From: Patescibacteria group bacterium
Lineage (GTDB): Bacteria > Patescibacteriota > Patescibacteriia > UBA2591 > JAQUPP01
Direction: 5' to 3'
Assembly: GCA_028716665.1 (NCBI GenBank)
Contig: JAQUPP010000001.1
Coordinates: 282,860-346,859 of the forward strand
Length of the DNA stretch: 64,000 bases
Part shown: piece after piece, positions 2,795 through 46,537 of the stretch
Position numbering within the stretch: position 1 is the stretch's first letter
How the letters are laid out: each line of letters opens with the position of its first letter
Program-made: the position numbers and the translations under genes
The notes under the pieces: generated by a model
What the model saw: only the letters and a program-made list of their open reading frames with translations
What the model was told of the DNA's origin: nothing
The model's database searches: none

Positions 2795-2823
2795 TTGACA
2801 TAATGCTTTTTTTCTTGTATTAT
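2795..2823 (+). promoter_or_regulatory. Sigma70-type promoter (TTGACA-N17-TATTAT); the predicted transcript is near-leaderless for femAB
   Basis: ttgaca 2795-2800, tattat 2818-2823, ATG at 2833. Confidence 0.5.
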
Positions 2824-2832
2824 GAAATCAAG

Positions 2833-3795: not shown

Positions 3796-3901
3796 ATTAA
3801 ACAGTTTTTGGTTATTAGTTCTTAGTTTTAGTTTATTAGTTTCCAGTTTCAAAATGAATAACCAAATAACCATAACCGTCAACTAAAAACTACAAACTAT
3901 T

Positions 3902-25117: not shown

Positions 25118-25642
25118 ATGCCTAAAATGAGATTTAAAATATTATTTTTTGTTTTATTAATCCTTCTATTTTTAGTTGATTTTTTTGTAGTGGGAAATTA
25201 TGATTCGATTTGCCGCCAGCATAAAGGTTATAATTACAATTATTTTTCTGATGGGGTAACATTTAAACCTGTCGCTCAATTCGGGTTAGAAAGAATTCAA
25301 TATAATTTTAAAAACTTTTTTATTTTTTGGATATCTCCGCCTATTGCTCAAACATTCAGTAATTTAAAAGAATTTATTACTTGTGATGGAAATACGGCGG
25401 CGGAAAATATTTTTCATTTTGTCGGATTCTTTATTTTGACTCTTGTCCTTTTATATTTATTCCGTATTAATATCTGGTATACGTTATTGATTGTTGTCAT
25501 ATTTAATATTTTTCATGAATATGTGGCGGAAGGAGTTTGCTGTGATCCTTCGTTTTTAGATCTTTGGCTGGACAGCGGCGGCATTGCTTTGGGTGTTTTG
25601 TTTTTCTTTTTCAAGAGAGTTATATGGCTGTTTCGAGAATAG
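25118..25642 (+). CDS. Hypothetical membrane protein
   Basis: ORF with TM helices; no assignable motif. Confidence 0.35.
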   Translation: MPKMRFKILFFVLLILLFLVDFFVVGNYDSICRQHKGYNYNYFSDGVTFKPVAQFGLERIQYNFKNFFIFWISPPIAQTFSNLKEFITCDGNTAAENIFHFVGFFILTLVLLYLFRINIWYTLLIVVIFNIFHEYVAEGVCCDPSFLDLWLDSGGIALGVLFFFFKRVIWLFRE

Positions 25643-27087
25643 TTTTTTATTGTTTGCTATTTTTTATCGGGGGCATTGGATTAGCCTCTTTTTTCTATCT
25701 GCCATTTTTCGTTTATTTGCCGGTATTTTTATTAATTTTATTTTTTTGCGTTTTAAAAAGGCCATTTAGAAATATTTGGCCTTTTGTCTTTTTTGTCATC
25801 TTTTTTACTTTGGGTGTTATTCGTTATAATTTAAGTTTTCCAAAAATTGATGAAAATAACGTGGCTTTTTACAATAACACAAATCTTATTTTTGAGGGAC
25901 AAGTTATCAGTGAGCCGGATGTGAAAACGGACAAAACCCAACTGACTGTCGGTAAAATAAATAATAATCAATTTAAAGGTAAGGTTCTAATTTCTGCACC
26001 GCTTTATTCTGATTATCAATATGGCGATTTATTGGAAGTTGATTGTCAACTTAAGGGCGTGCTTGATAATGGATTTAAAAATAATGCGGCAATTGTTAAT
26101 GATATTTATTCGGTTTGTTATTTTCCAAAAATAACAAACTTAAATCATAATCAGGGAAATTTTTTATATCAAAAAATATTTTTATTTAAAAATCAGGTAA
26201 AGAATCTAATTGACCAAAGTTTTTCCGAACCCCAAGGATCTGTTTTTTCCGCTTTATTATTGGGGCTTCAGCGCCAAATTCCTCAAGAAGTCAGAAATTG
26301 GTTTTCTACAACCGGTACAACCCATATTTTATCAGTTTCCGGATTGCATGTGGCGATTTTATCTCAATTGATAATGATTTTTATTGTCAGTGTTTTATTG
26401 ATTCGCCGTCAAATAGCTTTTTGGCTGGCGGCAATATTAATTATATTTTTTGTTATTTTGGTTGGTGCGCCCGCCGCGGCAGTTCGAGCGGCGATTATGG
26501 GCTTGGGTATTCTCTATGCCCAGAAAATCGGCCGTCCCCAGTCAGGATTAAGAATTGTTATTTGGGCTGCGGCGATTATGCTTTTAATTAATCCGAAACT
26601 TTTAGTTCTAGACATCGGCTTCCAATTATCGTTCGCTTCAATTTTGGGTTTAATATTTTTTACTCCGATTTTTAATCAATATTTTAAAAAAATACCCAAT
26701 CTTAGGTATTTACCGATTAAGGATTGCTTGTCAGCCACTTTCAGCGCTCAGGTTTTTGTCTTTCCTTTGATTTTATATTATTTCGGCACCTTATCGCTAG
26801 CCGCGCCTTTGGCGAATATTTTAATTTTGCCCATTATTCCGGTTTTAATGTTTTTGGGAATATTTTTTATTTTATTCGGAACAATTTCTGTTTTTTTGGC
26901 GAAAATTTTATTTTGGCCGATTTGGCTCGGTCTAACCTTTTTGATTTTAACGGTGAAAATAATCGCCAAGATTTTTTATTTTTCGCCCATCATTATCAAT
27001 TTTCCTTTGATTGCCGCTTTAATTTTATATTTTTTTATTGTTTGGTGGTTAATTTATGCTCAAAAAACTCAGTCCAAAAATTCTTAA
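25624..27087 (+). CDS. comEC: ComEC/Rec2 competence channel (DUF4131 and Competence domains only)
   Basis: 'TGTTHILSVSGLHVAILSQ' Competence-domain signature; many TM helices. Confidence 0.8.
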   Translation: MAVSRIVFYCLLFFIGGIGLASFFYLPFFVYLPVFLLILFFCVLKRPFRNIWPFVFFVIFFTLGVIRYNLSFPKIDENNVAFYNNTNLIFEGQVISEPDVKTDKTQLTVGKINNNQFKGKVLISAPLYSDYQYGDLLEVDCQLKGVLDNGFKNNAAIVNDIYSVCYFPKITNLNHNQGNFLYQKIFLFKNQVKNLIDQSFSEPQGSVFSALLLGLQRQIPQEVRNWFSTTGTTHILSVSGLHVAILSQLIMIFIVSVLLIRRQIAFWLAAILIIFFVILVGAPAAAVRAAIMGLGILYAQKIGRPQSGLRIVIWAAAIMLLINPKLLVLDIGFQLSFASILGLIFFTPIFNQYFKKIPNLRYLPIKDCLSATFSAQVFVFPLILYYFGTLSLAAPLANILILPIIPVLMFLGIFFILFGTISVFLAKILFWPIWLGLTFLILTVKIIAKIFYFSPIIINFPLIAALILYFFIVWWLIYAQKTQSKNS

Positions 27088-27949
27088 AATAATCATTTTC
27101 TCAGTCACCGGACTTTTATTGATTAATCTGGTTATTTTGGGTTATTGGTTGATTTTGACCCAGAATAATTATAATTCTTTAAGAGTTGTTTTTTTTGATG
27201 TCGGGCAAGGCGACTCAGCCTTGATACAGACGCCGGAAGGGAAGAATATTCTAATAGACGGCGGGCCGGACAAAAATGTTATTTATAAATTGGATAAATA
27301 TATTCCCATTACTCGCCGAAAAATTGATTTAATGATTTTGACTCATCCGGACCCCGATCATCTGATCGGCCTGGTTGAAGTTCTGCGACGCTGGCCGGTT
27401 GATCAAATCGTAACCAACAATACTGAAGAAACTGACTCTCTTTATTTCGAATGGAAGAAATTAATTCAAGAAAAAAATATTACGCCTGTTATTATTTCAG
27501 AACAGCGAAAAATTTGGTTGAATGATAAAATTTATTTGGATTTTTTGTGGCCGATTCAAGAGTTGGCCGGTCAATCCAATAAAGACGATAATAATCCCAA
27601 TTCTTTGGTTTTTAAGTTGGTTGATAATCAAAATAAAATTCTTTTTACCGGCGACGCCACCAGTGAAATAGAAAAAATATTATTGGACAATAATTATGAT
27701 TTGCAATCACAGGTTTTAAAAGTCGGGCATCACGGTTCCAAATATTCTTCGGATTTGAATTTTTTGGAAAAAATCAGCCCGATTTACGGCGTTATTTCGG
27801 TTGGCCAAAATAATAAATTCGGACATCCCAGCTTGAGGGCTTTAACAAGCTTGGAAGAAGTTGGCGCAGAAATATTAAGAACAGATCAAAACGGCGACAT
27901 TGTTTTTATTGACAAAAACGGGAAATTAATCTTAAAAATTGAGAAATAA
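27056..27949 (+). CDS. Metallo-beta-lactamase domain protein corresponding to the ComEC C-terminal MBL domain, encoded as a separate overlapping ORF
   Basis: 'VVFFDVGQGDSALIQTPEGKNILIDGGPD', 'LTHPDPDHLIGL', 'VGHHGSKYS'; N-terminal TM; different frame from the comEC ORF, with a 32-nt overlap. Confidence 0.75.
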   Translation: MLKKLSPKILKIIIFSVTGLLLINLVILGYWLILTQNNYNSLRVVFFDVGQGDSALIQTPEGKNILIDGGPDKNVIYKLDKYIPITRRKIDLMILTHPDPDHLIGLVEVLRRWPVDQIVTNNTEETDSLYFEWKKLIQEKNITPVIISEQRKIWLNDKIYLDFLWPIQELAGQSNKDDNNPNSLVFKLVDNQNKILFTGDATSEIEKILLDNNYDLQSQVLKVGHHGSKYSSDLNFLEKISPIYGVISVGQNNKFGHPSLRALTSLEEVGAEILRTDQNGDIVFIDKNGKLILKIEK

Positions 27950-27999: not shown

Positions 28000-28725
28000 A
28001 TGACATTGTCCATTGTTATCCCGGTTTACAATGAAAAGAAAACGATTTTGGAAATTTTAAAACGCCTTGAAGTGGTAAATTTTGGCTGTGATTACGAAAT
28101 TATTATTATTGACGATTGTTCTACTGACGGCACTGCTGCTTTATTAAAATCCGAAATTCTAAATCCAAAATCCGAAACAAATTCCAAATTCCAAATTCTA
28201 AATTCTAAAATCAGAATTTTTTTTCAAAATAAAAATTCTGGCAAGGGAGCGGCATTGAGACGCGGATTCCAAGAGGCGAGCGGTGAAATAATTGTTGTTC
28301 AGGACGCGGATTTGGAATATAATCCACAAGATTTACCAAAACTTATTCAACTGATTCTGGAAGGAAAAACGGATATAGTTTACGGTTCGCGGTTTTTAAT
28401 TAAACAAAAAGCAAAATATAAAATATTTTATTGGGGTAATCGTTTGATCGCCTTTTTGTTTTTTCTTTTTTACGGTCAGAAAATTACCGATCCCTGGACT
28501 TGCTATAAAGTTTTTAAAAAATCAATTACCCAAAATTTAAAATTAGAATCAAATGGTTTTGAGATGGAGCTTGAGATGACGGCTAAATTTTTGCGTAGAG
28601 GTTATAAAATTTTAGAACTGCCTATTTCATATCGAAGCCGAACTTATACTGAAGGAAAAAAAATCAAATGGATTGATGGAATAAAGGCTATTTTTACTAT
28701 TATTAAGTATAAATTTCATGATTGA
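28000..28725 (+). CDS. Family-2 glycosyltransferase (DPM1/GtrB-like)
   Basis: 'LSIVIPVYNE', 'IIIIDDCSTDGT', 'VVQDADLEY' (DxD). Carries an in-frame heptamer-repeat patch 28151-28212 'ILNPKSETNSKFQILNSKIRIFF'. Confidence 0.85.
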   Translation: MTLSIVIPVYNEKKTILEILKRLEVVNFGCDYEIIIIDDCSTDGTAALLKSEILNPKSETNSKFQILNSKIRIFFQNKNSGKGAALRRGFQEASGEIIVVQDADLEYNPQDLPKLIQLILEGKTDIVYGSRFLIKQKAKYKIFYWGNRLIAFLFFLFYGQKITDPWTCYKVFKKSITQNLKLESNGFEMELEMTAKFLRRGYKILELPISYRSRTYTEGKKIKWIDGIKAIFTIIKYKFHD

Positions 28726-29346: not shown

Positions 29347-30705
29347 ATGAATATATTGAAATTAATTTTATTTTTATTCATTCCCGGTTTATTAGGCTGG
29401 GGTATTTTAAGACCATTAATAGGTCAAAAAGAAAAATTTAATTTTTTTAAATTAATGATTTTGTCTTTTGGCTTGGGCACCGGAATACTTACTTTTTTAA
29501 TGTTTTTTTGGGGATTTTTAAATTTGCCTATTAAATATTTTATAATTTTTATTTCAATTTTGGCCGGTTTGATTTTAATATTTTACATATTCTTGGGCGG
29601 GCGTTGGAAAATGCCGAAAATTAAAATGCGCCGGTTTGATTTTAATTGGTTGGAAATGATTTTAATTTTAATTATTCTTTTCCAGGTTTTTTATGTTTTT
29701 TCCACCAGTATGATGCGGCCGATTATAAATTTTGACGCTGTAGCCAATTACGGTCTTAAGGCAAAAATGATTTTTTATGAAATTAAAAACTTTTTCAACT
29801 TGGATTCCAATATATTTTTAGGCGGCGATTCGCATATTAATTATCCTCTTCATATTCCTTTGTTGATGGCTTGGACTTATTTCGGCATGGGCCAGGTAAA
29901 TGATGTTTTAGTAAACATAATTTTTGCTTTTTATTTTTTGGCTTTAATCGGTTTTGTTTATTTAAGTTTAAAAGAAAAAATCGGCCGTCAAAATTCTTTG
30001 ATTTTTACCATGTTTTTGGCTACTCTGCCGCTTTTAAATTATCACGGTTTTAACGCTTATTGCGATTTGCCCTTGGCTTTTTATTTTACCGTGGCCGCCA
30101 TTTCCTTGTTTAAATATTTTAAAAATAAAAACAAAACCGACCTGATTTTGGCCGGTATTTTTGCCGGATTAACAACCTGGATTAAAAACGAAGGATTGAT
30201 TTTGGCCGGTATTTTAATTATTGTTTTCGTAATTTATTTGATTCTTGAAAAAATAATAAAATTTAAATTTAAAAGTTTTTTGTTGTTTATTTTTTGTTTT
30301 TTGATTTTCTTTTTGCCATGGTTTCTTTTTAAAATAATTTTCGGTTTCGGTTACAGCAATCTTTCTCCGGAGGCCGTATTTTTAAACGGTTTTCATCCCG
30401 AAATTTTTTCAAAAATTTTGGAGCAATTATTTATTTTTCATTCTTTCCATATTTGGCCTGGCATTTTTTTGATAATTTTAATTTTAAATTGGCGACAAGT
30501 TTTTATTAAACCTAATATTTATTTGTTTTTAATTATTTTTGGCGCTTTGACCGGTTTTTTATTTATTTATCTTTTTACTTCGGCTTATCAATTTGTGATA
30601 GATAGCACGGCCAGCAGCCGCAATTTATTGGTTATTATGCCGTTAACCGTTTTTTTGGCAGGCCTGCTTTATAAGGGTGGTAAGAAAGAGGAAAATTTGT
30701 TATAA
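29347..30705 (+). CDS. Polytopic membrane protein, putative GT-C-type (ArnT/PMT-like) glycosyltransferase
   Basis: More than 10 TM helices; follows a GT2 that would make a lipid-linked sugar donor. Confidence 0.35.
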   Translation: MNILKLILFLFIPGLLGWGILRPLIGQKEKFNFFKLMILSFGLGTGILTFLMFFWGFLNLPIKYFIIFISILAGLILIFYIFLGGRWKMPKIKMRRFDFNWLEMILILIILFQVFYVFSTSMMRPIINFDAVANYGLKAKMIFYEIKNFFNLDSNIFLGGDSHINYPLHIPLLMAWTYFGMGQVNDVLVNIIFAFYFLALIGFVYLSLKEKIGRQNSLIFTMFLATLPLLNYHGFNAYCDLPLAFYFTVAAISLFKYFKNKNKTDLILAGIFAGLTTWIKNEGLILAGILIIVFVIYLILEKIIKFKFKSFLLFIFCFLIFFLPWFLFKIIFGFGYSNLSPEAVFLNGFHPEIFSKILEQLFIFHSFHIWPGIFLIILILNWRQVFIKPNIYLFLIIFGALTGFLFIYLFTSAYQFVIDSTASSRNLLVIMPLTVFLAGLLYKGGKKEENLL

Positions 30706-30715
30706 TTAAGTCATT

Positions 30716-31489
30716 ATGAATGTTTTTTATTGGTTCTTCAGTTTTATTTTTGGCTTGTCAATCGGCAGTTTTTTGAACTGTTTGATTTGGCGTTTGCATA
30801 TTAAAAAATCAATTCAAGGACGTTCTGTTTGTCCTGATTGCGGCCATCAAATTGCCGGGTATGATAATATTCCTGTTTTAAGTTTTATTTTTTTAAAAGG
30901 GCGTTGCCGTCATTGCCATCAAAAAATTTCTTGGCAGTATCCGATAGTTGAATTGGCGACTGGTCTTCTTTTTGTATTTTCTTTTTTAATTTTAGATTCC
31001 AGGCTTCATATTTTAGACTCTATATTTTATATTTCACTTTTTCGCTATTGGATTATCTCAGCCGTTTTAATCTTTACTTTTGTTTATGATTTTAAATATC
31101 TTGAAATTGAAGATGTTGTTCTTCTGCCTTCGGCCGGAATAGTTTTTGTCTTGGATTTATTGCTCGGTTATTCGGCGATTAAAATATTTTTAACTGTTTT
31201 AATCGCTGTTCTTTTTTTTCTTCTCCAATATTGGATAACCAAAGGCAAAGGAGTTGGACTGGGCGATTATAGAATCGGTATTTTTATGGGCATGGCTTTG
31301 GGTAATTGGTCACAGTTGGCAGTGGCGATTTTTATTTCTTACATTGTCGGCACTTTAATCAGTTTAATTTTATTGATTGGCAAAAAGAAAGGAATAAAAA
31401 GCATGATTCCCCTGGGGCCGTTTTTGGCTATCGGAACATTTGCCGCAATTTTTTACGGTCAACAAATAATTAATTGGTACTTGTATTAG
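30716..31489 (+). CDS. pilD: Type IV prepilin peptidase (A24 family)
   Basis: N-terminal zinc motif 'CPDCGHQ...CRHCHQKI', catalytic 'GLGDYRI' region. Confidence 0.9.
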   Translation: MNVFYWFFSFIFGLSIGSFLNCLIWRLHIKKSIQGRSVCPDCGHQIAGYDNIPVLSFIFLKGRCRHCHQKISWQYPIVELATGLLFVFSFLILDSRLHILDSIFYISLFRYWIISAVLIFTFVYDFKYLEIEDVVLLPSAGIVFVLDLLLGYSAIKIFLTVLIAVLFFLLQYWITKGKGVGLGDYRIGIFMGMALGNWSQLAVAIFISYIVGTLISLILLIGKKKGIKSMIPLGPFLAIGTFAAIFYGQQIINWYLY

Positions 31490-31499
31490 AATTTAGAAT

Positions 31500-32069
31500 A
31501 TGGCAAATAAAAATATACTAAAACCGATTCCAAATTCCAATCCGCCAGCTGGCGGACCAAATTCCGGTAAAAGAGCTTTCACTCTTATTGAGCTTGTTGT
31601 TGTTATCAGTATTACAGCTTTAATTGCCGGGATGGTTTTTGCCAATATGAGAAGCGGCGGTCGTTCCGTAAATATTAATTCCGACGCGGAAAAATTAGCA
31701 GGAGTTATTAAACAGGCCCAAATGATGTCTTTAAGCGGCCAGCAAATTAATGGGATCAGGCCGGACGATGGATACGGCGTTTATATTACAACTAATTCTT
31801 ATAAACTTTTTGTTAATGATAATTTAGGCTCCAGTCATTTATATGAAGCCGAAGATACGGTTGTTCAATCTTTTGATTTTACTCAGTATGTGGAAGCGAG
31901 TCCGACCGGAACGACCATAATTTTTATTCCACCTCAGAGTACAATTTATGTTGATGGAAGCCAACTTGGGGATCCGAAAACATTAATCCTCACTCAAACT
32001 CAAGAAAATTTAAATGCTTATGTGAGAATTAAGGCTTATGGCGAAGTTGATGTCCGCAAGTCGCCATAG
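31500..32069 (+). CDS. Type IV pilin-like protein with a 27-aa leader 'MANKNILKPIPNSNPPAGGPNSGKRA|FTLIELVVV'
   Basis: FTLIEL with Glu+5 and a hydrophobic helix; the leader DNA carries the heptamer repeat and the CCGCCAGCTGGCGG palindrome. Confidence 0.8.
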   Translation: MANKNILKPIPNSNPPAGGPNSGKRAFTLIELVVVISITALIAGMVFANMRSGGRSVNINSDAEKLAGVIKQAQMMSLSGQQINGIRPDDGYGVYITTNSYKLFVNDNLGSSHLYEAEDTVVQSFDFTQYVEASPTGTTIIFIPPQSTIYVDGSQLGDPKTLILTQTQENLNAYVRIKAYGEVDVRKSP

Positions 32070-32114
32070 TAATCAAAATCTTAAAAATTATTTTAGAAAT
32101 CAAAATTATAAATT

Positions 32115-32645
32115 ATGAAACGCAGCGCGCAAAGTTTAATTGAGACCATTGTTGCTATTGGCATGATCACGGTCGCCATAGTGGCTATTTTATCTGTAGG
32201 TTTAAGCAATTTAATGTTAAGCGGACAAACCTCGGAAAGAGTGATAGCGACAAATTTGGCTCGCGAAGGGGTTGAAATTATTAATGCCATCAGGAGTAGC
32301 CAAAGATTGGATCCGGATCAAACCTGGCCTTATGGTATGACAAATGGCAATTGGATAGTTGATTACGACGATTCCAGTTTAACCGCAGCCGATTCCGCTA
32401 CAATTGGTGCATGTGATAATTGCAGTCTTTATATAACCGGTAATGATGTTTATACTCGTGATTCCGGCAGTAATACATTAACGATTTATCGCAGATTAAT
32501 TAATATTTCTGATGGCGATATTTTAGGCGGAAATTGTCTTAACGTGGGAGATTGCGAAAAAATAATTACCTCCACGGTTTATTGGACAGAGAGAGGAAGA
32601 CCGCACAGTATTGAACTTAAAACTCATTTAACAGATTGGAGATAA
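32115..32645 (+). CDS. Minor pilin / pseudopilin-like protein (non-canonical 'KRSA|QSLIETIVAIG')
   Basis: Glu at +5 of a hydrophobic N-terminal helix; small size. Confidence 0.6.
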   Translation: MKRSAQSLIETIVAIGMITVAIVAILSVGLSNLMLSGQTSERVIATNLAREGVEIINAIRSSQRLDPDQTWPYGMTNGNWIVDYDDSSLTAADSATIGACDNCSLYITGNDVYTRDSGSNTLTIYRRLINISDGDILGGNCLNVGDCEKIITSTVYWTERGRPHSIELKTHLTDWR

Positions 32646-32703
32646 AGATGGAATCTAGAATATGGAATTTAGAATTTAGAATAAAAAACAAAAAATTTAA
32701 AAT

Positions 32704-33762
32704 ATGGAAGAAAGAACAATAATAAAATCATTTACTGATTTGATGGTGTGGCAGGAAAGCCATAAGCTTATTTTATTGATTTATAAAATTACCAAAAAAT
32801 TTCCAAAAGAAGAACTTTTTGGTTTAACAAATCAAATGCGTCGAGCCGGAGTTTCAATTACGTCTAATATCGCTGAAGGATTTTCCAGACAAAGTTTTAA
32901 AGAAAAATTACAGTTTTATTATATGGCTCTTGGCTCACTGACTGAAGTCCAAAATCAATTTTTAATAGCCAAAGATTTAAAATATTTAGATCAAATAGAG
33001 TTTAGAGAAGCTATTGGGCAAATAACAAGCGTTCATAAATTATTGAATGCTTTTATTAAAAAATCTAAATTGATTCTAAGTTCTAATCCAAATTCCAAAT
33101 TCCAAATTCCAAATTCTAGTAATAAGGGTTTCACCCTCATTGAGCTTTTGATTTCTTTAAGTATTTTAGTAGTAGTGATCTTATCAGCAGTTGGTATTTA
33201 TATTAATATTATCGGCACGCGCAGTAAAAGTTTGGGGCAATTGAATCTTCAGGAAGATGGGCAGTATATCATGAGCTTGATTGTGAAAGATATCCGCGCC
33301 AATAAAATAGATTATGATGAATATGGCGATAGTGATGAGAAAGATTGCGGAATTATAAACGTGAGCACCCTGAAAGTAGGAGACAATACTTCATCAAGAG
33401 TGGCAAAATTATGTTTACTTGATTTTAGTGCGACGCCGAATAAAATCAGATATAAAAGATGTCTTGATCCGAATAATGCAAACAGAGGTGTCCTAAAAAT
33501 ATGCAGAGGTGTTGACTGCACGACCAATGATTGTCCCTCCACGGGCGATACTTATCAAACAATAACTATGGCTAATTTGGGTGTTGAGCGCCTTGATTTT
33601 TATATCAATCCGTTTACTAATCCTTTTACGGCCGGTTCTATTACTTATATTCATCCTCGGGTTACTATAATTTTAAAATTAAAATCTTTAATTGAGAAAC
33701 CCGGTGAAAAACAAATAATTCTTGAGCAGACGGTTCCCCAGAGATACGAGCTCAAAAAATAG
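32704..33762 (+). CDS. In-frame fusion ORF: N-terminal four-helix-bundle protein (PF05635, '23S rRNA IVS'/Avd-like, ~120 aa), a heptamer-repeat-encoded linker 'SSNPNSKFQIPNSSNK', then a type IV pilin ('GFTLIELLISLSILVVV...')
   Basis: Family signature 'VSITSNIAEGFSR' in the N-terminal half; canonical prepilin cleavage/helix motif at aa ~142; the linker is a 4-unit 'ccaaatt' tandem (33088-33119). Confidence 0.7.
   Translation: MEERTIIKSFTDLMVWQESHKLILLIYKITKKFPKEELFGLTNQMRRAGVSITSNIAEGFSRQSFKEKLQFYYMALGSLTEVQNQFLIAKDLKYLDQIEFREAIGQITSVHKLLNAFIKKSKLILSSNPNSKFQIPNSSNKGFTLIELLISLSILVVVILSAVGIYINIIGTRSKSLGQLNLQEDGQYIMSLIVKDIRANKIDYDEYGDSDEKDCGIINVSTLKVGDNTSSRVAKLCLLDFSATPNKIRYKRCLDPNNANRGVLKICRGVDCTTNDCPSTGDTYQTITMANLGVERLDFYINPFTNPFTAGSITYIHPRVTIILKLKSLIEKPGEKQIILEQTVPQRYELKK
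33088..33119. repeat. AAATTCC/AAATTCT heptanucleotide tandem repeat (4 units); member of a dispersed family
   Basis: 'ccaaattccaaattccaaattccaaattctag'. Confidence 0.9.
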
Positions 33763-33821
33763 AATTTGGAATTTAGAATATAGAATTTAGAAAAAATAAA
33801 AATAAGAAAATAACATAAAAT

Positions 33822-34598
33822 ATGGAAAATAAAAATATACTAAAACTGGTTCCAAATTCCAATCCGCCAGCTGGCGGACCAAATTCTAGTAAAGATGGTC
33901 TTTCCATAATTTTAATTCTTTTGATTATTTCTTCTATTTTAACGGGCACGGTTATCGTTGGAGAAACTATTGTTAGACATACGCAGATAGTCAAAGGCGC
34001 TGAAGTTTCCGAAAAAGCCTTTTTTGCCGCTGAAACCGCGGTTGAAAAAGCGATTTATGGAGTGTTTAAAAATTACGCCAGTGTTACCACCGTTACCGAG
34101 GGCAGTATAATTTATGGCGCGACTTCCGCGACTTATTCAGCCAGTGTTAGCATCGACGTTGAAAATCCCGATACGGGTATTGATATAACAAATAGTGATC
34201 CTTGGATAATTTCTTTGGGAGAAGGAGAATCCTTTCAATTGAATTTGGATCTAAACAGCACGGCTTATCCTACGGCCTTGAGAATTGATCGGACGGGCGA
34301 TGGTTTTGGTGATTTGATTTTTTATCAATGTACCGCTTCCAGTAACGGATGTTCTTCTACGGAAAATCAAATTTTTTACTCGAATTTTACCGGACAGGAT
34401 ATTACTTTTAGTCCGTCTATTCCGACAAATTATTATCGAATTAGAATAAATAATTCAGGCGGAACCGGCACTTATACTTTAAAACCAAATTCCGCTACCC
34501 TGCCGATTGGTGTAAATATCACGGCGGAAGGATTCTATGGCGGTTACGAACGTCAGATAAATGACAATTATCCGAAGTGGCAGAAATTCGGGATATAA
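33822..34598 (+). CDS. Pilin-like protein with a duplicated leader 'MENKNILKLVPNSNPPAGGPNSSKDG'
   Basis: The first 23 codons are nearly identical at DNA level to the 31500 gene, including the CCGCCAGCTGGCGG palindrome; a hydrophobic helix follows. Confidence 0.6.
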   Translation: MENKNILKLVPNSNPPAGGPNSSKDGLSIILILLIISSILTGTVIVGETIVRHTQIVKGAEVSEKAFFAAETAVEKAIYGVFKNYASVTTVTEGSIIYGATSATYSASVSIDVENPDTGIDITNSDPWIISLGEGESFQLNLDLNSTAYPTALRIDRTGDGFGDLIFYQCTASSNGCSSTENQIFYSNFTGQDITFSPSIPTNYYRIRINNSGGTGTYTLKPNSATLPIGVNITAEGFYGGYERQINDNYPKWQKFGI

Positions 34599-34705
34599 TT
34601 TTTTTAATGTTTTTATCCACCCTTAAAGAATTGTAAATTTTATAATTAGTAATATACTTAATAGTATAATAATTAAAATTCTCAGAAAGAATTTTTAATA
34701 AAAAT

Positions 34706-37700
34706 ATGAAAATTTCCAATAAAGCGATAACTAATAAATTTTTAGTAAAAAGTTTTTTTATCGCTATTTTAATTATCAGTGCCAGCGCAATGGTTGTTTT
34801 TGCCTGGACAGAACCGACTTTAAGTCCGCCGGACGGAAATACTTCGCCGCCGATTAATGAGGGTTTAACCAGCCAGGGCAAGCTGGGTAATTTAGGTGTT
34901 GGAACAACAAGTCCGATAGAAAAACTTGAAATATATTCCGGAAATATTAATATTCGCCGTCCGGATAATAGCGCTACTATGGGCCTTCTTTTTTCTCAAG
35001 GAGTTAATGATTTATGGAGAACTTATATAACCAATGATAGCGCATCTGACTTAAGATTCCGGGCAGGCGCTACCGACCATATGACAATTCAATATTCTAC
35101 TGGCAATGTCGGCATCGGAACAACAGTTCCAGGATATCCATTGACAGTCAATGGCATTGTCCAAATTGGAACTAATTTATATCTTAATGGCGGAACGACA
35201 AAATATCTTTATGCCTCAGGGAGTGAATTAAGGATTGGAAGCCTCGGCGGCGGTGGTTTTATTTCATTTTACGGCAATGACGGTTCAAATCGCGAAATGA
35301 TGAGAATGACAGGCGCGAATTTGGGTATCGGGACAACAATTCCGGCATACAAGTTAGATGTGGTAGATAATACAAATGATATTAATGTTGGAGTTCGCGC
35401 AACGGCTGCTTCTAAAGCCGTTTATCTTAGATTAGAAGGTACTCACACTACCTATGGTGGTGTTATATATAAGACATCGGGGGCTGATACTTGGAAATTG
35501 GGAAATTTCGGAGATACTGCCGATTCCTTTAATATTTATACAGCAGGTTCAAATAGAATGACAGTATTATCCGGTGGCAACATCGGCATCGGGACAACAA
35601 TCCCGACTACGGTCTTAGATATTAATGGTGCTTTAACCGCTCGAGGTATGGCTGCTCCTTCAACTTCACCTGCGGGTCAAGGCAGAATATATTTTGATTC
35701 AACGGCCAATGTATTTAAGGTTTCAGAACATGGTGGCGTTTATACTAATCTTGTGGGTGGAAATTATTGGACCCGCGATAGTGGAAATGGATATCTTTAT
35801 TCTACGACTCTTACTGACAAAGTCGGTATCGGGACAACGGTTCCGGGGTATAAATTACAGATCAACAATACAGCAAAATCCGGGGCTGATAATGCGTTAG
35901 TCGCGATTAGCAGTTCTGATGCGACAAATCCTTTTCAATTTATTATTGGTAGGTCTGCGGCAGGAGCAGATTCTTATTACTCACTCCAATCAGTCGAGCA
36001 GAATACTGGTTATCGGGATATCGTGTTGCAACCAAATGGCGGCAATGTCGGAATTGGAACAACGGATCCGGGAGCGTATAAATTAAATGTAAATGGACAA
36101 ATTTTAGCCACTAGCTATATTCGCAGTGATAGTTATGTCCAAAGTCGTTCAACCACTCCTTATCTTGATTTATATCAAGATGGACAACAAGAGTGGAAAA
36201 TTGGACAACTTACAGCTGGCAGTAAAACTTTAACATTACAAGCTACTGGAGCAGCATCTCCAGATGTAATGACTTTATTGTCAACGGGTAATGTCGGTAT
36301 TGGGACAACAGTACCGGTTTCACCGTTGCATATTTATAAAGCAGTTGGCGGTGGAGGTATTACTACTTTTCTTACATTAGATCCGCATAGCGGAACCAAT
36401 GAAGATGGTTCAGCTATTGATTTTATTACTTCAACAGATACGGCAACTGTGGGAACTAAAATTGCAGGGGTGCGCGATGCGGCAGGTGCGTATGCTTCTT
36501 TAAGATTTACAACAAGAGGTTCAGATGGATTATTAGAACGAGTCAGAATAGCAAATAACGGCAAAGTCGGCATCGGGACGACAATACCGGGATATAAACT
36601 TGATGTTTGGGATTCCGGAGATGCGGCTATAACCAGAATTAATAATAATAACACAACCCATTACTATACCGGTTTGCGATTAGACAGAGAAGCTTCAGAG
36701 AAATGGTTTGTGGGTATGAATGCCACTGCCAGTAATGATAATTTAGTATTCAGGCGAGCAGGCACTACTGATGATATGGTAATCAGCACGAGCGGTTATG
36801 TCGGCATTGGAACAACCGCGCCAATATCGCAATTATCCGTAGCCATACCATACGCAAAAACCGATACCACAGAGCGCGATGCAATTAACATGGTGACCAA
36901 TGATACAAATCCCTTTAAACTGAATTTTTCAATTACAGGAGCGGCCACCATAGCCAATCGAGCGGCAATTTTACAAACCAGCGATAGTGGCTTGGCTTAT
37001 GGCGGAAATTTAATTCTTCAACCGAATACGGGCAATGTCGGTATTGGGACAACTGGACCAAGTGCTAATAAATTAGTTGTTGATGGCGGCGGACTTACTT
37101 TTCAAGGCGGCGGTTCTCATTATATTACCGGTTTAACGCCATTGGGAGCTGGCGATCCTGATACTTATGCCGCGAATAAAGGTTATGTTGATGCTATCGC
37201 AACGGGCAGTGTTGGTCTTTGGCAAGGTAGTATGACTGGCAATATTTATAAGGCTAATTCCGGCAATGTCGGCATCGGAACGACAGTGCCAGTAGAATTA
37301 TTGCATCTTAAAAAAGACCAAGCAGCTTATACAAATATAAAAATTGAAAATGCCAATTCTGCTGGAGCTGCGCAGGTATTTATGATTAATGATTTAGGTA
37401 GTGCCTACACTCAAGGACTATATGGTTCTACTCATGACGCCTATGGTGCCGTTTCTGCAAATGGTGGATTTACATATTTTAATGGGGCTGGTGGATTAAC
37501 CCTAATGGCAGATAATGCTGCGGGAATTATTAAATTTGCTACAGGAGGTAATAGTGAAAAGGTTCGAATTAATAGTACTGGTTATGTCGGCATCGGAACA
37601 ACAAACCCCTTAGAAAAACTTGAAGTATATTCTGGGAATATTCGTACTCACCGACCGGATAATAGCACCACCATGGGCTATCTTTACGCTCAAGCAGGCA

Positions 37701-41194: not shown

Positions 41195-41227
41195 AATTTT
41201 CTGATAATTTAAAATTGAAAAATCAAA

Positions 41228-41599
41228 ATGGAAAATGACAATGTAAATTTTAAAAATGAATTCAAAAAACGCCTTTATAACTGGGTTTTAAGATTAATCA
41301 AGTTTATAGACAAGCTTCCCAAAGACTCCGTATGTAATGTCTTGGGAAAACAGCTTCTAAGAAGTGGAACAAGCATTTTGGCAAATTATATTGAGGCAAA
41401 CTCAGCCAGCTCAAAGAAAGATTTTATTAATTTTTTCACTCATTCTTTAAAATCAGCCAATGAATCTAAGGTTTGGCTGACATTATTAAGAGATACTGAC
41501 AAAGGAGATAAAAATGAATTGCAGTGGTCATTAAAAGAACTGATAGAAATAGCCAATATTCTGGCTTCCAGCATTTTAACTCTCAAGGGTAAGAAATAA
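41228..41599 (+). CDS. Four-helix-bundle protein (PF05635 / TIGR02436, '23S rRNA IVS' / Avd-like)
   Basis: 'LRSGTSILANYIEANSASSKKDFINFF' family signature; 123 aa. Confidence 0.7.
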   Translation: MENDNVNFKNEFKKRLYNWVLRLIKFIDKLPKDSVCNVLGKQLLRSGTSILANYIEANSASSKKDFINFFTHSLKSANESKVWLTLLRDTDKGDKNELQWSLKELIEIANILASSILTLKGKK

Positions 41600-41673
41600 T
41601 TTTGACATTTTGAATTGTAATTTTAATTTTTGATATTTACATTTTGCATTTTTTAATTATCCACTTTATATTA

Positions 41674-41702: not shown

Positions 41703-41751
41703 ATAAGAGTAAAGTTAGTATTTTTAAGTATAAAATTGATTGTTTAAATAT

Positions 41752-44700
41752 ATGAAAAAACAAATATTTTCTTCAAAAATTATTTATTTTTCGATTTTTT
41801 TAATTTTAATTTGTTTTTCTTATTGGGGAGTAGAAAAAGTAAGGGCAGCTGATCCGCTGGACAATGATCAGATTGATATGCTGAAATATTTAGACATGAA
41901 TGAGCACGGGATTTTTAATTTAGCTACTCCGGTAGATGATGATAACGCCGCGACACAAGGATATGTTAAATCAGTAGTTTTAACAAATACTGGTTGGACG
42001 GCTACTGACAGCTATATTTATTTAACTACTATTGGTAATAGCGTCGGTATTGGAACAACAATTCCGGTCGCAAAATTGGAAGTTGCCAATAATTATAGCA
42101 GCACGGCAACGCTACCTTCGGCTAATATTGGTATAGTTGGGCGTAATTATACAGGTTCCGGCGCTGATGTTATTGGTGTCTATGGACAAGGAAAAACCAA
42201 TGACGCTTCTTATAACAGTTATGGCGGTTATTTTTATGGCACTTATAGCAGTAATAGAAATAAAGCGATTGGTATTTATGCTTATGGAAATGATTATGCG
42301 GCTATTTTGGATGGTACTGTCGGAATCGGATCATCAATACCGGCTACAAAATTAGATGTTAATGGCAATATTGCGGCGAATACCTATTATTCTCGTGGTG
42401 ATCCAATCGGTTATTTTCTTAATCCTGCCGCAGGTGGTACGGGTTGGGGATTATATTCCAATGGTTCTGTATATGCTTCTGGAAGTGATGATAATTATTT
42501 TGCCGGAAGCGTCGGAATTGGAATAACAAATCCGGGAGCAAAACTTTCAATCGTAACACCGGATACCAATTATTCAACAATATGGTCTAATAACGGTGGT
42601 GCAAATAATGAATATCTTTCTTTATATCAAACTGTTGATGATTTTATATTTACTTCCAATAAAAATGGTTCAGGAGTTCGTAAGGGTATAGGAATTACTG
42701 CCACAGGTGCGGATAATACCATGCCTAGTGGAATATATTTAAAAACAGACGGTTATGTCGGAATAGGAACAACAATTCCGGGTTTTAATCTTGATGTTTA
42801 TGGTTCAGGGGTTGTGGCATCGCAAATTGTAAGCACTAATAATTATTCAGCTCAATATATTAAAGGTGGTCAGAGCGGAGATGTACGCTGGGGATTATTT
42901 AGCGGATATCCGAATGTGGGAGATTTTACAATCAGAGAGACAGGAGTTGCTGATTATTTGACAGTCAAAAAAACTACCGGCAATGTCGGTATTGGGACGA
43001 CGATTCCAGGCATGGTATTAACAGTTAATACGAGTACTAATGATCAAGGTATTCAAATTCAAGGAGCAGCATCAAATATTAGTCCTGTACTTAAATTCGC
43101 AACTTCGGCAGGTACTGCTTATGCTCGTATTGGTATTGCGGGTGCAGCTGGTAATTTAGCTACAAACAGTGGTCAAAATGATTTAGTTATTAGAACAGAA
43201 GGTACTCAAAAACTTCATCTTGCTCCAGGAGCCGTTATTACTGAAACTTTGCTTTCTACTGGTTATGTCGGCATTGGAACAACAATCCCATCAACAAATC
43301 TTGATGTTAATGGCCAAATAAAAATCAGAGGAGGGGTACCTGGCGCTGGTAAAATTTTAATTTCGGATGCAGTTGGTTTAGCTACTTGGTCTCCTGCCAC
43401 TTCTATCAGCGATGGCGACTGGACAATTTCCGGCAATAATCAATATTCTGCTGTTTCCGGCAACGTCGGTATTGGGACAACGGATCCGACGGCAATTTTA
43501 CAAATTAATAAATCCACTGGCGGTAGTGGACAAAAATGGTTGATTCTTTCTACGACTGGAGCTTCCAGTGAAGGAATGGTTTTTAGAACTGACAATGGTG
43601 ATATTAATCGTATCACGTCTTATGGTGATTTGTATTTAGAATCCAATAATGGTTCAGGTGCTACTTTAGGACTTGATAGTGGTGGTCATTCTAGTTTTGG
43701 AGGTTATGTTTATGCACCCAGTTTGACTGTAGGTGGACTGGACATTACCCCACCGACAGAGGGAGCTATTATTTCCGGCAATGTCGGTATCGGGGTGACG
43801 GATCCAGTTAGTAAATTAGCAATTTTATCCGGAGCGGGTGTTGGCGGAATTTCAATCGGCACTGATGAAACTTATGCTGCTGTAGCTGCTCCCGACGGCG
43901 GAGCAATAATTGAAGGCAATGTCGGTATCGGTTATACAACTGCTTCTATAGATAAATTAAGAGTTAATGGTTCTATTATGTCTACGGGTCCTGCTGGTGG
44001 GAGTCCGTTGCTTACATCGGCTATTAGAATGTCAGTGGAAGGATCCGGAGCTTATGGACAAGTTCAAACTTATAATTCTGTGCCCTTAGTGTTAAACCCC
44101 ACAACTGCGGGCGGTAATGTCGGTATTGGCGTGACAAATCCGGGTAATAAATTAAGTGTTTATGGAGGCACAATAGGTGCTTATAATTTTGACGGAACCG
44201 ATGGTCTATTAATTGAAGGATATAGCGCTTCAGCTAGCGATGATGCAATGATGCAATTTCATACTTCGGGAGCGCTTTATAAAATGGGAATAGATTATTC
44301 TGATGAAGGAAAATTTAAGCTTACTTATGGTAGTGAAGATAATGGACAGACACAAATTGTAATGACTGGCTCCGGTAAGGTTGGAATTGGATTAGCAAAT
44401 CATACTCCGTTATCCAAACTGGACGTGTCGGGTAATATGGCTATTGGTTCTTATGCCGGGGCTAGCGCCGCACCTTCAAATAGTTTAATAGTTAGTGGCA
44501 ATATTGGTATTGGAACAACAGCACCGGGAATAGATTTAGCTATTGGCGATACTGATACCGGTTTAGATTGGGCGAGTGATGGTAATTTAAAAGTAATGAC
44601 TAATAATTCAGAAAGAATAAGAATCGCTTCAGATGGTAAGGTTGGAATTGGAACAACCGGGCCGGTAAATCCACTTCATATTTATTCGTCATCATCTTCT

Positions 44701-45963
44701 GTAATTCCATTGAGAGTTGACGATTATTATTATACTTATTCAATAGGAGCTGGAACTTTTTCATCGCCCAATACAAATGGATGGCAATTATACAAAGCAA
44801 GCTCGGAAACTTATTATGACAGCGTAGTGGGTGGGCATCATTTTTTGACCTCAGGATCTGAAAAAGTTACATTTACGAGTGATGGTAAGCTTGGAATCGG
44901 AACAGCTACGCCAGCAACATATTTAGACATCAAAGGAACACAAGTTGCCGGAAGCTACGGAGATGCCGCAACAGCGATAAAGATTAATATGACAAATGAT
45001 GCTTCATCAATCTATGGTGGAATTGCATGGAAGGACAGCGAAACAGCGGCCGAGACTTGCGGGATTTATCCTATGCGTTCGGGCGGAGTGAATTATTTCG
45101 ATTTTTTAAATACAGGTACAGTTTATATGAGGTTATTAGGCGGAACAGGAACAATCTTGAATGACAACAGCGCTGACTTGGATTTTCGCGTAGAAAGCAA
45201 TGATAACGCAAATATGTTTTTTGTTGATGGTGGGGCAAATACAGTAACAGTAGGATATAACGGATCACTTGGTTCTAAATTTAATGTTTATTCGGCGACA
45301 AATAACACAACACAATTTACCGGTCATCTATTGAATGTCAGAGCAGGAGATGGAACCACTAATACAATTAGTGAAATTGATTTCGGAGTAGCCAATACAG
45401 TAGCACCAGTTATTATCGGAAGTAAAGTTATAGACGGTTCCGGTGCTACAAAGGGAGATTTTTATATCGGGACAAGAGATTCGACAGATGGAGCAACGCT
45501 TCCAACAGAAAGATTAAGAGTAACAACCGCTGGCAAAGTCGGTATCGGGATAACAAATCCGGGACAAGCATTGGATGTTACTGGAACTATTCGCCAATCA
45601 GCTTGTAAAACAGCCGGTACTCTTTCCGCAAATACTTCAGGTGATATTATTTGTACATCTGATGAGCGATTGAAAAATATTTATGGATATTATCAAGGCG
45701 GACTTGCCGCGCTTTCCGCAATTAATCCGATAAAATTTTCTTATAAAGGAGAAGATTTCGTTCATGTGGGATTCTCGGCGCAGAATGTAAAAAGTGTTTT
45801 ACCTGAAGCCAGCGCCTTGCAGGATAGCGGTTATTGGAGCTTGGACGATACATCAATTACGGCATTAACTGTAAATGCCATCAAAGAACAACAAAAAGAA
45901 ATCGAAGATTTGAAAAATGTTGTCTGTCAATTAAAACCCGATGCAGATGTCTGCAATAAGTAA
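41752..45963 (+). CDS. Giant tail-fibre-like surface protein (about 1400 aa) with a C-terminal peptidase-S74 intramolecular-chaperone (autoproteolytic) domain
   Basis: Signal peptide; N-terminal 'IFNLATPVDDDNAATQGYVKS' tail-fibre-like motif; many GNVGIGTT repeats; C-terminal 'CTSDERLKNIYGY...HVGFSAQNVKSVLPEAS...ITALTVNAIKEQQKEIEDLKN' matches the endosialidase-chaperone domain. Confidence 0.75.
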   Translation: MKKQIFSSKIIYFSIFLILICFSYWGVEKVRAADPLDNDQIDMLKYLDMNEHGIFNLATPVDDDNAATQGYVKSVVLTNTGWTATDSYIYLTTIGNSVGIGTTIPVAKLEVANNYSSTATLPSANIGIVGRNYTGSGADVIGVYGQGKTNDASYNSYGGYFYGTYSSNRNKAIGIYAYGNDYAAILDGTVGIGSSIPATKLDVNGNIAANTYYSRGDPIGYFLNPAAGGTGWGLYSNGSVYASGSDDNYFAGSVGIGITNPGAKLSIVTPDTNYSTIWSNNGGANNEYLSLYQTVDDFIFTSNKNGSGVRKGIGITATGADNTMPSGIYLKTDGYVGIGTTIPGFNLDVYGSGVVASQIVSTNNYSAQYIKGGQSGDVRWGLFSGYPNVGDFTIRETGVADYLTVKKTTGNVGIGTTIPGMVLTVNTSTNDQGIQIQGAASNISPVLKFATSAGTAYARIGIAGAAGNLATNSGQNDLVIRTEGTQKLHLAPGAVITETLLSTGYVGIGTTIPSTNLDVNGQIKIRGGVPGAGKILISDAVGLATWSPATSISDGDWTISGNNQYSAVSGNVGIGTTDPTAILQINKSTGGSGQKWLILSTTGASSEGMVFRTDNGDINRITSYGDLYLESNNGSGATLGLDSGGHSSFGGYVYAPSLTVGGLDITPPTEGAIISGNVGIGVTDPVSKLAILSGAGVGGISIGTDETYAAVAAPDGGAIIEGNVGIGYTTASIDKLRVNGSIMSTGPAGGSPLLTSAIRMSVEGSGAYGQVQTYNSVPLVLNPTTAGGNVGIGVTNPGNKLSVYGGTIGAYNFDGTDGLLIEGYSASASDDAMMQFHTSGALYKMGIDYSDEGKFKLTYGSEDNGQTQIVMTGSGKVGIGLANHTPLSKLDVSGNMAIGSYAGASAAPSNSLIVSGNIGIGTTAPGIDLAIGDTDTGLDWASDGNLKVMTNNSERIRIASDGKVGIGTTGPVNPLHIYSSSSSVIPLRVDDYYYTYSIGAGTFSSPNTNGWQLYKASSETYYDSVVGGHHFLTSGSEKVTFTSDGKLGIGTATPATYLDIKGTQVAGSYGDAATAIKINMTNDASSIYGGIAWKDSETAAETCGIYPMRSGGVNYFDFLNTGTVYMRLLGGTGTILNDNSADLDFRVESNDNANMFFVDGGANTVTVGYNGSLGSKFNVYSATNNTTQFTGHLLNVRAGDGTTNTISEIDFGVANTVAPVIIGSKVIDGSGATKGDFYIGTRDSTDGATLPTERLRVTTAGKVGIGITNPGQALDVTGTIRQSACKTAGTLSANTSGDIICTSDERLKNIYGYYQGGLAALSAINPIKFSYKGEDFVHVGFSAQNVKSVLPEASALQDSGYWSLDDTSITALTVNAIKEQQKEIEDLKNVVCQLKPDADVCNK

Positions 45964-46054
45964 TCTATTGATTATTAAAGAATTAACGAGTTATGAAAAT
46001 AAAGAACATAAGCTAATTTCTAATTTTCAATTTCTAATTTCTATTGAATTTTAA

Positions 46055-46433
46055 ATGAATCAATTTTCAAACCCGAAAAACAAGGAATATAATTTAGAAG
46101 AAAGAACAGCCAAATTCAGCGAAGACATAATAGAATTCATAAGAAGCATTAAGAGAGACGATATTAATCGTAATATTATTACTCAATTAGCGCGTGCCAT
46201 AACTTCAATCGGCGCTAATTATTGCGAAGCTAATGCTTCCAGCTCAAAAAAGGATTTTCGCAATAAAATATATATTTGCAAAAAAAGAGGCCAATGAAGC
46301 AAAATATTGGTTAAGGATATTGGCTAAATATCATCCTGAATTGAAAGAAAAAATAAGAATTTTTTGGCAAGAAGCCCATGAATTTCATCTGATTTTTCAG
46401 AAAATTACCAACACCCTGGATAAAAAAGTTTAA
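46055..46433 (+). pseudogene. Four-helix-bundle (PF05635) gene disrupted by a frameshift in an A7 run near 46270 (two overlapping ORFs, 46055-46297 and 46233-46433)
   Basis: 'ITSIGANYCEANASSSKKDFRNK' continues in the +1 frame as 'IYIAKKEANEAKYWLRIL...'; paralogue of the 41228 gene. Confidence 0.6.
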
Positions 46434-46537
46434 AAATTAAAGAATTGAAAATTTAATAAAAATTAAAAATTAGAAATTGAAAATTAATTAAGTATTTATA
46501 ATCCGTTAATTTATAAATTAATAATCTAATTAAAGTT

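Follow-up and report, generated by a model that had tools for sequence, protein, structure and literature searches.

We analyzed a 64,000-nucleotide (nt) stretch of the genome of a Patescibacteria group bacterium (assembly GCA_028716665.1, contig JAQUPP010000001.1, positions 282,860 to 346,859 of the forward strand; here called the window), in which one plus-strand open reading frame (ORF; 32704-33762) encodes a protein of 352 amino acids (aa) that joins a four-helix-bundle (4HB) domain in frame to a type IV pilin. The 4HB gene and two inverted heptamer arrays (32650-33117; net ~425 nt) are probably an S23p cassette of the intervening-sequence (IVS) type, situated at the 5′ end of a pilin gene, whose fusion product is cut by the prepilin peptidase PilD. 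What the analysis shows directly is the anatomy of the locus, the empty sites of orthologous pilin genes, an architecture that recurs throughout the 4HB family, the bias of fusions toward exported partners, and purifying selection on both halves of the fusion.

An earlier note, made from the letters of this DNA, had described a complete PF05635 domain fused in frame to a pilin, and profile searches bore this out, with matches above the cutoffs in both halves. PF05635 covers aa 12-116 of the fusion (E = 1.3e-37; 128.7 bits, Pfam cutoff 33.8), and TIGR02436, “four helix bundle protein,” scores 124.7 bits (NCBIfam cutoff 24); in the pilin half, PF07963 (N_methyl) matches aa 138-162 with 31.5 bits (Pfam cutoff 21.2), and TIGR02532 scores 25.7 bits (NCBIfam cutoff 16.3). 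The solved structure nearest to the 4HB is that of X. campestris XCC0516 (PDB 2GSC; E = 2e-18). AlphaFold2 models the fusion with a mean pLDDT of 88 as two confident domains with a disordered linker between them: a bundle at aa 10-127 (helices 10-30, 35-61, 65-91, and 97-127) and a pilin half in which an α1 helix (aa 145-199) is followed by a β-sheet. The linker, which the heptamer repeat encodes, has a pLDDT of <50 at aa 134-140. The pilin signature is present, with Gly-1, Phe+1, and the Glu+5 motif followed by a hydrophobic α1-N helix, and the predicted PilD cut lies between Gly142 (33127-33129) and Phe143 (33130-33132). The leader ending in Gly-1 is 142 aa long if translation starts at 32704; it is 20 aa only if the start is the TTG at 33070.

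The linker tract consists of “ccaaatt” repeats, as the note had stated: Tandem Repeats Finder (TRF) reports a period of 7, 4.3 copies, and 100% matches at 33087-33116, with four perfect units. Just upstream of the 4HB start lies a second array, the inverted complement of the linker repeat, and in both minimum free energy (MFE) and centroid folds of 32630-33140 the stem formed by the two arms closes the whole 4HB ORF (z = −3.5). The inverted-repeat score of these arms is 19, compared with a maximum of 10 among shuffled sequences. Because the upstream array is inverted with respect to the linker and the stem closes the ORF, the linker repeat forms the 3′ terminal arm of two inverted arrays between which the 4HB lies, rather than a stand-alone switch. 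The heptamer family, RGAATWTRGAATWTRGAAT (RGAATWT, or AWATTCY on the opposite strand), occurs 19 times in the window when up to one mismatch is allowed, versus 0.01 occurrences expected.

The same anatomy is found at 4HB loci generally. A 4HB-domain scan of one genome per GTDB species supplied the best 80 loci (L007 to L086), whose flanks (150 nt on each side, counted from the start and from the end of the domain) were each compared with 30 shuffles; an inverted repeat scored above every shuffle in 67 of 78 related 4HB loci. Tandem heptamers make up the arms, and their unit varies by locus, even among closely related 4HBs (for example, GAATTTR, GAATTAT, GATTTAA, AGTATTT, AGACAAC, TAGTGGT, CGTATCT, and GGTTGTT), and the cassettes are hosted by Patescibacteria, Bacteroidota, Omnitrophota, Atribacterota, and other phyla. 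Among 80 flanks on each side, a lag of 7 gave the strongest periodicity in 71 downstream and 37 upstream; identity at this lag averaged 0.48 downstream, 0.39 upstream, and 0.26 inside the ORF. A co-oriented ORF of at least 80 aa follows 65 of the 72 stand-alone cassettes, starting between −60 and +120 nt of the 4HB stop (median, 28 nt), and in several of these loci (L012, L016, L011, and L015) it starts within the 3′ arm itself: the downstream ORF of L012 opens with MPNSKFQIPNS, followed by a signal peptide, and L015 has a pilin leader built from arm units. Read-through fusions account for two of the 80 GTDB loci (L010 and L018); in the others, the ORF ends 2-13 codons past the domain. The 4HB protein may recognize its own heptamer arrays, which would explain why the arms are paired at each locus even though the unit differs between loci.

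The earlier note had interpreted the linker tract as a slipped-strand switch: (CCAAATT)4 would gain or lose units, toggle between a fusion and two ORFs, and make the minor pilin phase variable. We consider such a switch improbable. Neisseria opa genes carry CTCTT repeats in the region coding for the signal peptide and undergo slipped-strand phase variation, and the pilin tract is like such contingency loci in being a tandem repeat with a unit that is not a multiple of 3, located in the leader-coding part of a gene for a surface protein, where a change of one unit shifts the frame. In a simulation of unit number, only 1, 4, or 7 units kept the ORF in frame; 2, 5, or 8 units gave an immediate TAG (“...SKF” and stop), and 3 or 6 units gave a TGA 10 codons further on. 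Thus, the note was right that one unit more or less separates the ORFs, and right about the immediate stop for five units but not for three. The perfection of the tract is also what would be expected of a recently homogenized one, and the heptamers of the Coxiella IVS vary between 2 and 3 copies among strains (PMC4990558), so that slippage is mechanistically possible. Four units are few for a contingency locus, however, and this number is conserved across elements: exactly four CCAAATT units are found in the window and in L010, L012, and L018, which are different elements in different genomes that stand before unrelated genes, and this argues against rapid change in length. Moreover, the tract pairs with an upstream array, and repeats of its dispersed family flank 4HB genes in an architecture that is family-wide; out of frame, the pilin would have no ATG; and fusions in other lineages stay in frame through long divergence. 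No length polymorphism was observed at the pilin tract, since all three assemblies with this protein have four units, although they represent a single population and so are not independent (0 mismatches over 7059 nt; the locus L002 among them is identical as far as the end of its contig). That the tract is an artefact of assembly is unlikely as well: at 30 nt it should fit within a typical read, all three assemblies have the same sequence at the locus, and synteny is conserved.

Orthologous pilins show what the locus looks like without the cassette. Those of L003, L004, and L005 are 203-225 aa long, have no 4HB, and are 90, 83, and 68% identical to the window pilin in the mature part; P0007, compared as a protein only, shows 70% identity over the mature part and likewise has no 4HB. 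The empty sites of L003 and L005 read TAA-aaaa-TAGAAT-ATG-aaagaaaaaaatatacttaaattt-ATTCCAAATTCCAAT, and L004 has a diverged version. Alignment of the filled site with the empty ones gives a net difference of ~425 nt, which falls after the stop codon that ends the upstream gene and before the leader ATTCCAAATTC. L004 does contain a stand-alone 4HB gene two genes further down, with its own inverted heptamer-like arrays flanking it. In P0004, P0010, and P0011, the orthologous pilin (51-61% identical) is fused to a 4HB that is only 28-35% identical to the one described here, and the 4HBs nearest to ours (60-70% identical) stand before unrelated genes. Because orthologous pilins bear 4HBs of different clades, 4HB genes have come to precede this pilin at least twice independently; a single 4HB clade, in turn, lies before many different genes.

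Both halves of the fusion are under purifying selection. The ratio of nonsynonymous to synonymous substitution (dN/dS) of the pilin half, compared with its empty-site orthologue in L003, is 0.14; neighboring genes have values of 0.09 and 0.21, comparisons of one empty-site orthologue with another give 0.11-0.23, and the 4HB half compared with its relatives gives 0.11-0.21. These values bear on a different explanation, in which the cassette destroyed the start codon of the pilin gene and the pilin half is a recent pseudogene that happens to be still open. In keeping with such an inactivation, the original ATG context (TAGAAT ATG) now reads ATG GAA TTT AGA ATT TAG, and the closest relatives do without the 4HB. 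It is nevertheless very unlikely, since the dN/dS of the pilin half is indistinguishable from those of neighbors and empty-site comparisons, no internal stop or frameshift occurs in 210 codons, the arm has none of the C>T variants that would make an in-frame TAA, and similar fusions persist in other lineages.

An alignment of 3′ junctions (alignment A3) suggests how the fusion arose. In the stand-alone cassettes L012, L016, and L011, the 4HB ends at the TAA within an ATTCTAA unit, followed by an ATG and then by (CCAAATT)n. Fusions L010 and L018 have lost this short stop/ATG segment by deletion; the window fusion keeps it, but frameshifted, such that the TAA of the relic ATTCTAA unit (33073-33079) is out of frame, and there is no ATG. 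The L010 junction has no start codon at all (TCG), and L018 has TTG in place of ATG. Because the stop/ATG segment of stand-alone relatives is deleted or frameshifted in the fusions, the fused form is a derived state of a two-ORF arrangement of cassette plus gene.

A search with the 4HB only, against 1.84 billion cluster representatives, returned 22,278 relatives, of which we inspected the best 150 (clusters at 50% identity). Among these 150 were 26 N-terminal 4HB fusions of at least 225 aa, and in all 26 the partner opens, after a heptamer-derived linker (for example, PNSKFQIPNS, KSYILNS, or SKFKIQNS), with a prepilin motif or a signal-peptide or transmembrane segment. By a hydrophobicity criterion, an exported-type segment is present in 25 of the 26 fusions versus 16 of 65 genes that follow stand-alone cassettes (Fisher P = 1.3e-10); the corresponding count for all fusions seen is 76 of 81. 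The few cytosolic partners looked at, DHFR (P0080) among them, begin with a Met of their own where they join the 4HB. The frame has been kept in P0004, P0010, and P0011 although the pilin part has diverged to 48-64% identity, and in a family of cohesin-like fusions at 22-61% partner identity; among fusions, partner identity and 4HB identity are correlated (r = 0.53). Read-through fusions thus recur and are long-lived. We rejected the idea that this 4HB clade is always fused, which reflected query bias: a search with the whole fusion gave long proteins only, and in the 4HB-only and GTDB searches fusions are a minority.

These junctions also bear on whether the fusion is only apparent, the relevant pilin being a separate protein that starts at the TTG at 33070 with a 20-aa leader, M-ILSSNPNSKFQIPNSSNKG. 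The TTG is in frame (codon 123), as the earlier note had said, and it stands where stand-alone relatives have the ATG of the downstream gene; L018 has its TTG at that same place, a 20-aa leader is within the known range (PMC4471445), and ~90% of cassettes are two-ORF arrangements. We regard separate proteins as unlikely, though less so than a switch or an inactivated gene. With no stop codon in the way, ribosomes that start at 32704 must make the fusion; the L010 junction lacks any start codon; the stretch from the 4HB to the signal sequence lacks a Met in most fusions; and long upkeep of the frame, with partners of the exported type only, would be needless if the downstream gene had a start of its own. 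A Shine-Dalgarno-like sequence was found neither at the 4HB, nor at the neighboring pilin genes, nor at the TTG at 33070, so prediction of start sites by this criterion was not useful.

We infer that the fusion is translated and that PilD processes it, and any mechanism of mobility would likewise be inferred. In its usual state, the 4HB gene of the cassette ends in the TAA of the ATTCTAA unit, with an ATG within a few bases, and the 3′ arm, (CCAAATT)4, encodes the first residues, PNSKFQIPNS, of the co-oriented downstream gene. At the pilin locus, the stop/ATG segment is frameshifted and the ATG lost, so that the 4HB frame continues across the 3′ arm and on into the leader of the pilin, which would then be made as the 352-aa precursor, which we take to be the main product, or from the in-frame TTG. 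With either product, the α1-N helix would insert in the membrane and the N-terminal part would be cytoplasmic; PilD, encoded two genes upstream, would cut after Gly142, yielding a normal mature pilin and leaving the 4HB in the cytoplasm. Prepilin leaders are known to stay cytoplasmic and to be cut on the cytoplasmic face after Gly-1, and prepilins are inserted in the membrane by the signal recognition particle and Sec acting on the hydrophobic helix (PMC4471445). Because leaders stay in the cytoplasm and are cut on that face, a folded cytoplasmic N-terminal domain would be topologically compatible with processing. Read-through fusions would persist only where a leader peptidase or signal peptidase removes the extension. 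More tentatively, S23p-type cassettes in Patescibacteria could act as portable 5′ ends, a possibility toward which we lean less than halfway: the 3′ arm would give the downstream gene a start codon and an n-region, and where the stop was lost the 4HB would become a cleavable cytoplasmic pro-domain of exported proteins.

Several points weigh against a PilD-processed cassette of this kind. A leader of 142 aa is far outside the 6-26 aa of described systems, whose leaders are hydrophilic (PMC4471445); the earlier note had rightly called a leader of ~140 aa unprecedented. The pilin half otherwise agrees with type IV pilins in its Gly-1/Phe+1/Glu+5 motif, α1-N helix, pilin fold, and an operon that holds PilD and minor pilins, and differs from them in having a folded domain ahead of Gly-1. 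An internal start at the TTG would make the “fusion” partly a matter of annotation. The cassette comes with no transposase, integrase, or endonuclease; the term “mobile cassette” draws on distribution only, and its gain and loss could just as well result from recombination among the dispersed arrays. Mismatches between arms, scored on the sense strand at 69 loci, were of the G·U type in 57 cases and of the A·C type in 82, most mismatches being of other types; this lack of a sense-strand G·U excess means that a functional mRNA stem is not supported. Finally, the empty leaders of the orthologues hold one or two heptamer units and MKEKNILKF, which is like the 4HB N terminus, MEERTIIKSF. Because these leaders resemble the 4HB start and carry heptamers, the alignment of filled and empty sites can be drawn in two ways, and the empty leaders may themselves be decayed cassettes; gain of the cassette at this locus, rather than loss elsewhere, is likely.

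The nearest known counterparts are the IVSs of 23S rRNA genes that encode S23p (Coxiella burnetii, Leptospira, Xanthomonas). In Coxiella burnetii, the IVS measures 428-444 nt and contains an S23p ORF with tandem heptamers (GACAGAT) before its start codon; RNase III cuts the 28-bp stem that the terminal inverted repeats form, and the number of heptamers differs between strains (PMC4990558). The pilin cassette shares with these elements the PF05635/TIGR02436 protein family, its size (~425 nt versus 428-444 nt), an ORF looped out between terminal inverted repeats that form a stem, tandem heptamers beside the ORF, a sporadic presence among relatives, and the lack of a recognizable mobility enzyme. 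Unlike them, it lies at the 5′ end of a protein gene, between the PilV-like gene and the pilin coding region, rather than in an rRNA helix; its ORF has lost its stop, and the 3′ arm is translated in the prepilin leader. Searches of 30000-36000 found no rRNA or other Rfam family (E ≤ 1), apart from a chance match to a microRNA model. Excision by RNase III, as in rRNA, would destroy the pilin message. The Coxiella IVS ORF has been reported to be decaying (PMC4990558), in contrast to the 4HB described here, which is under purifying selection (dN/dS, 0.11-0.21). PF05635 ORFs have also been noted in insertions in 16S and 23S rRNA genes of candidate phyla radiation (CPR) bacteria (PMC11270868) and wedged between cas genes (PMC3936711). 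In the searchable literature, which is incomplete, we found no paper that links PF05635 genes generally with heptamer arrays or with pilin fusions, nor any description of inverted tandem-heptamer flanks of PF05635 genes or of the bias of fusions toward exported partners.

The 4HB also belongs to one superfamily with bAvd, the four-helix-bundle accessory variability determinant of diversity-generating retroelements (DGRs), and could in principle be an Avd-like accessory protein of a DGR that targets the pilin. Besides sharing this fold, it matches PF22296 and NF033474 weakly (29.3 and 27.9 bits, respectively), but both scores are under the curated cutoffs (40 and 80, respectively). Searches of the ORFs up to ~10 kb away in each direction identified no reverse transcriptase, and self-comparison of the window revealed no repeat pair involving the pilin that resembled a template repeat and variable repeat. 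We therefore rejected a DGR role, which we judge to have almost no chance of being correct.

The fused gene is the fifth in an operon with the order PMT_2, PilD, GspH/FimU-like pilin (31500), PilV-like pilin (32115), fused pilin, pilin-like gene, and giant protein, and this operon is conserved in L003, L004, and L005. It adjoins ComEC, with Competence and metallo-β-lactamase domains (25564-27949); the PMT_2-family glycosyltransferase and PilD occupy 29347-31489. This context suggests a DNA-uptake or competence-type pilus. The earlier note had pointed out that the fusion leader resembles those of neighboring pilins, and CCAAATTC units are indeed present in both. Two neighbors open with leader modules (31494-31571 and 33816-33893) of 78 nt that are 92% identical, the rest of the two genes being unrelated; each contains 5′ heptamer units, an ATG, xNKNILK, and CCAAATTC units. 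A perfect 14-nt palindrome, CCGCCAGCTGGCGG, which encodes PPAGG, is embedded in the heptamer array of the leader modules and has the look of another small element lying within the repeats. Table 1 gives the coordinates of these features and of those of the cassette.

Table 1. Features of the fusion locus, its neighbors, and a second 4HB cassette (window positions)
Feature	Position	Strand	Evidence or remark
Prepilin peptidase PilD (A24 family)	30716..31489	+	PF06750 2.5e-32, PF01478; synteny in L003-L005
ORF-less arm architecture at start of first minor pilin gene: TAGAATTTAGAAT-ATG-xNKNILK-ATTCCAAATTCCAAT-CCGCCAGCTGGCGG-ACCAAATTC	31487..31571	+	
5′ arm, GGAATCT AGAATAT GGAATTT AGAATTT AGAAT	32650..32682	+	Pattern matches, MFE pairing
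A-rich spacer before 4HB start codon	32683..32703	+	Without Shine-Dalgarno-like sequence
4HB domain, aa 1-122, S23p/23S-rRNA-IVS protein family	32704..33069	+	PF05635, TIGR02436, 2GSC, AlphaFold2
Junction, TTG ATT CTA AGT TCT	33070..33084	+	In-frame TTG (codon 123), candidate internal start
3′ arm (linker repeat), AAT (CCAAATT)x4 CT, encoding NPNSKFQIPNS	33085..33117	+	TRF, fold, junction alignment
Class III (prepilin) signal motif, SSNKG-FTLIELLISLSILVVVILSAV, predicted cut at the hyphen	33115..33189	+	PF07963, TIGR02532, motif definition PMC4471445
Mature minor pilin, 210 aa + stop	33130..33762	+	Orthologous to 4HB-less P0002, P0003, P0007, P0008
Leader module opening the gene after the fusion (5′ array 33761-33793, ATG 33822)	33761..33893	+	3′ units and palindrome in leader
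Second, more distant 4HB cassette (ORF 41228-41599, 123 aa)	41202..41652	+	PF05635 3e-18; TIGR02436 82 bits; TRF

The second 4HB cassette of the window has inverted period-7 arrays with another unit (TGAAAAT/ATTTTSA). It lies just upstream of a gene for a 1407-aa protein (41740-45963) with a Peptidase_S74 chaperone domain.

Heptamer arrays are present elsewhere in the window, including within other coding genes. The minus-strand gene for peptidyl-tRNA hydrolase (Pth; 53439-54032; PF01195, 5e-52) contains a 5.3-copy array of the linker-repeat family (53785-53821) in frame, translated as “AVKILNSKFQIPNSNLWVIHDD”; this segment has what we take to be the length of the matching segment of E. coli Pth, in which case the array would stand in place of native sequence and not be an addition to it. 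In a FemAB-family gene (2803-3795), two inverted arrays (3066-3098 and 3163-3192) lie 64 nt apart and in frame (“KESGIWNLEYGI” ... “ESPNSKFYIPNSK”). They bracket what seems to be native FemAB sequence and form an arm pair that lacks an ORF, placed within a coding region. A degenerate array (28146-28218) in a GT2 glycosyltransferase gene (28000-28725) is translated as “SEILNPKSETNSKFQILNSKIRIF” between the DxD region and the NxGKG motif. Intergenic period-7 arrays occur at 3802-3899, 46013-46043, and 46430-46487, with the units TTTTAGN/AACTAAA, CTAATTT, and TTAAAAA; that at 3802-3899 is an inverted pair with no ORF between its arms. The genome thus seems rich in heptamer hairpins of several unit types. 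A coding tandem repeat in ORF 1745-2581 (1862-2515; units of 75/177 nt, copies ~70-80% identical) is unrelated to the heptamer family.

Rickettsia palindromic elements are a precedent for in-frame insertion of repeats in coding genes. They, and the heptamer arrays of Xanthomonas and Nostoc, have in common with the arrays described here that they form dispersed families of short repeats, often in convergent pairs, and that they are tolerated in frame in housekeeping genes (here, the Pth, FemAB-family, and GT2 genes). The window arrays differ from the Rickettsia elements in being tandem heptamers rather than a long palindrome, and two of them bracket a protein gene. Xanthomonas has 70-75 convergent heptamer pairs, and the study of Xanthomonas and Nostoc arrays did not link them to S23p genes (PMC4692102).

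S23p/IVS elements have been known since the early 1990s and have usually been treated as a curiosity of rRNA; to our knowledge, neither a function nor a mobility mechanism has been established for them. Our data indicate that an ORF, inverted tandem heptamers, and a place 5′ of a co-oriented gene are the rule for PF05635 far outside rRNA, and that the arms stay complementary at each locus while the unit sequence varies between loci. In Patescibacteria, the cassette is repeatedly found fused in frame to pilins and signal-peptide proteins, and such fusions last over long evolutionary periods. This gives an experimental entry into two matters: the binding target of the 4HB and the N-terminal cargo that prepilin and signal peptidases tolerate. 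For annotation, the label “four helix bundle protein” on CPR proteins of 300-800 aa conceals pilins, adhesins, and further surface proteins, and heptamer-encoded protein segments like PNSKFQIPNS are footprints of the repeat family. If cassettes of this type are indeed portable 5′ ends, the fusion would be a prepilin with a folded 142-aa leader, ~5 times as long as the longest described, that is removed by PilD.

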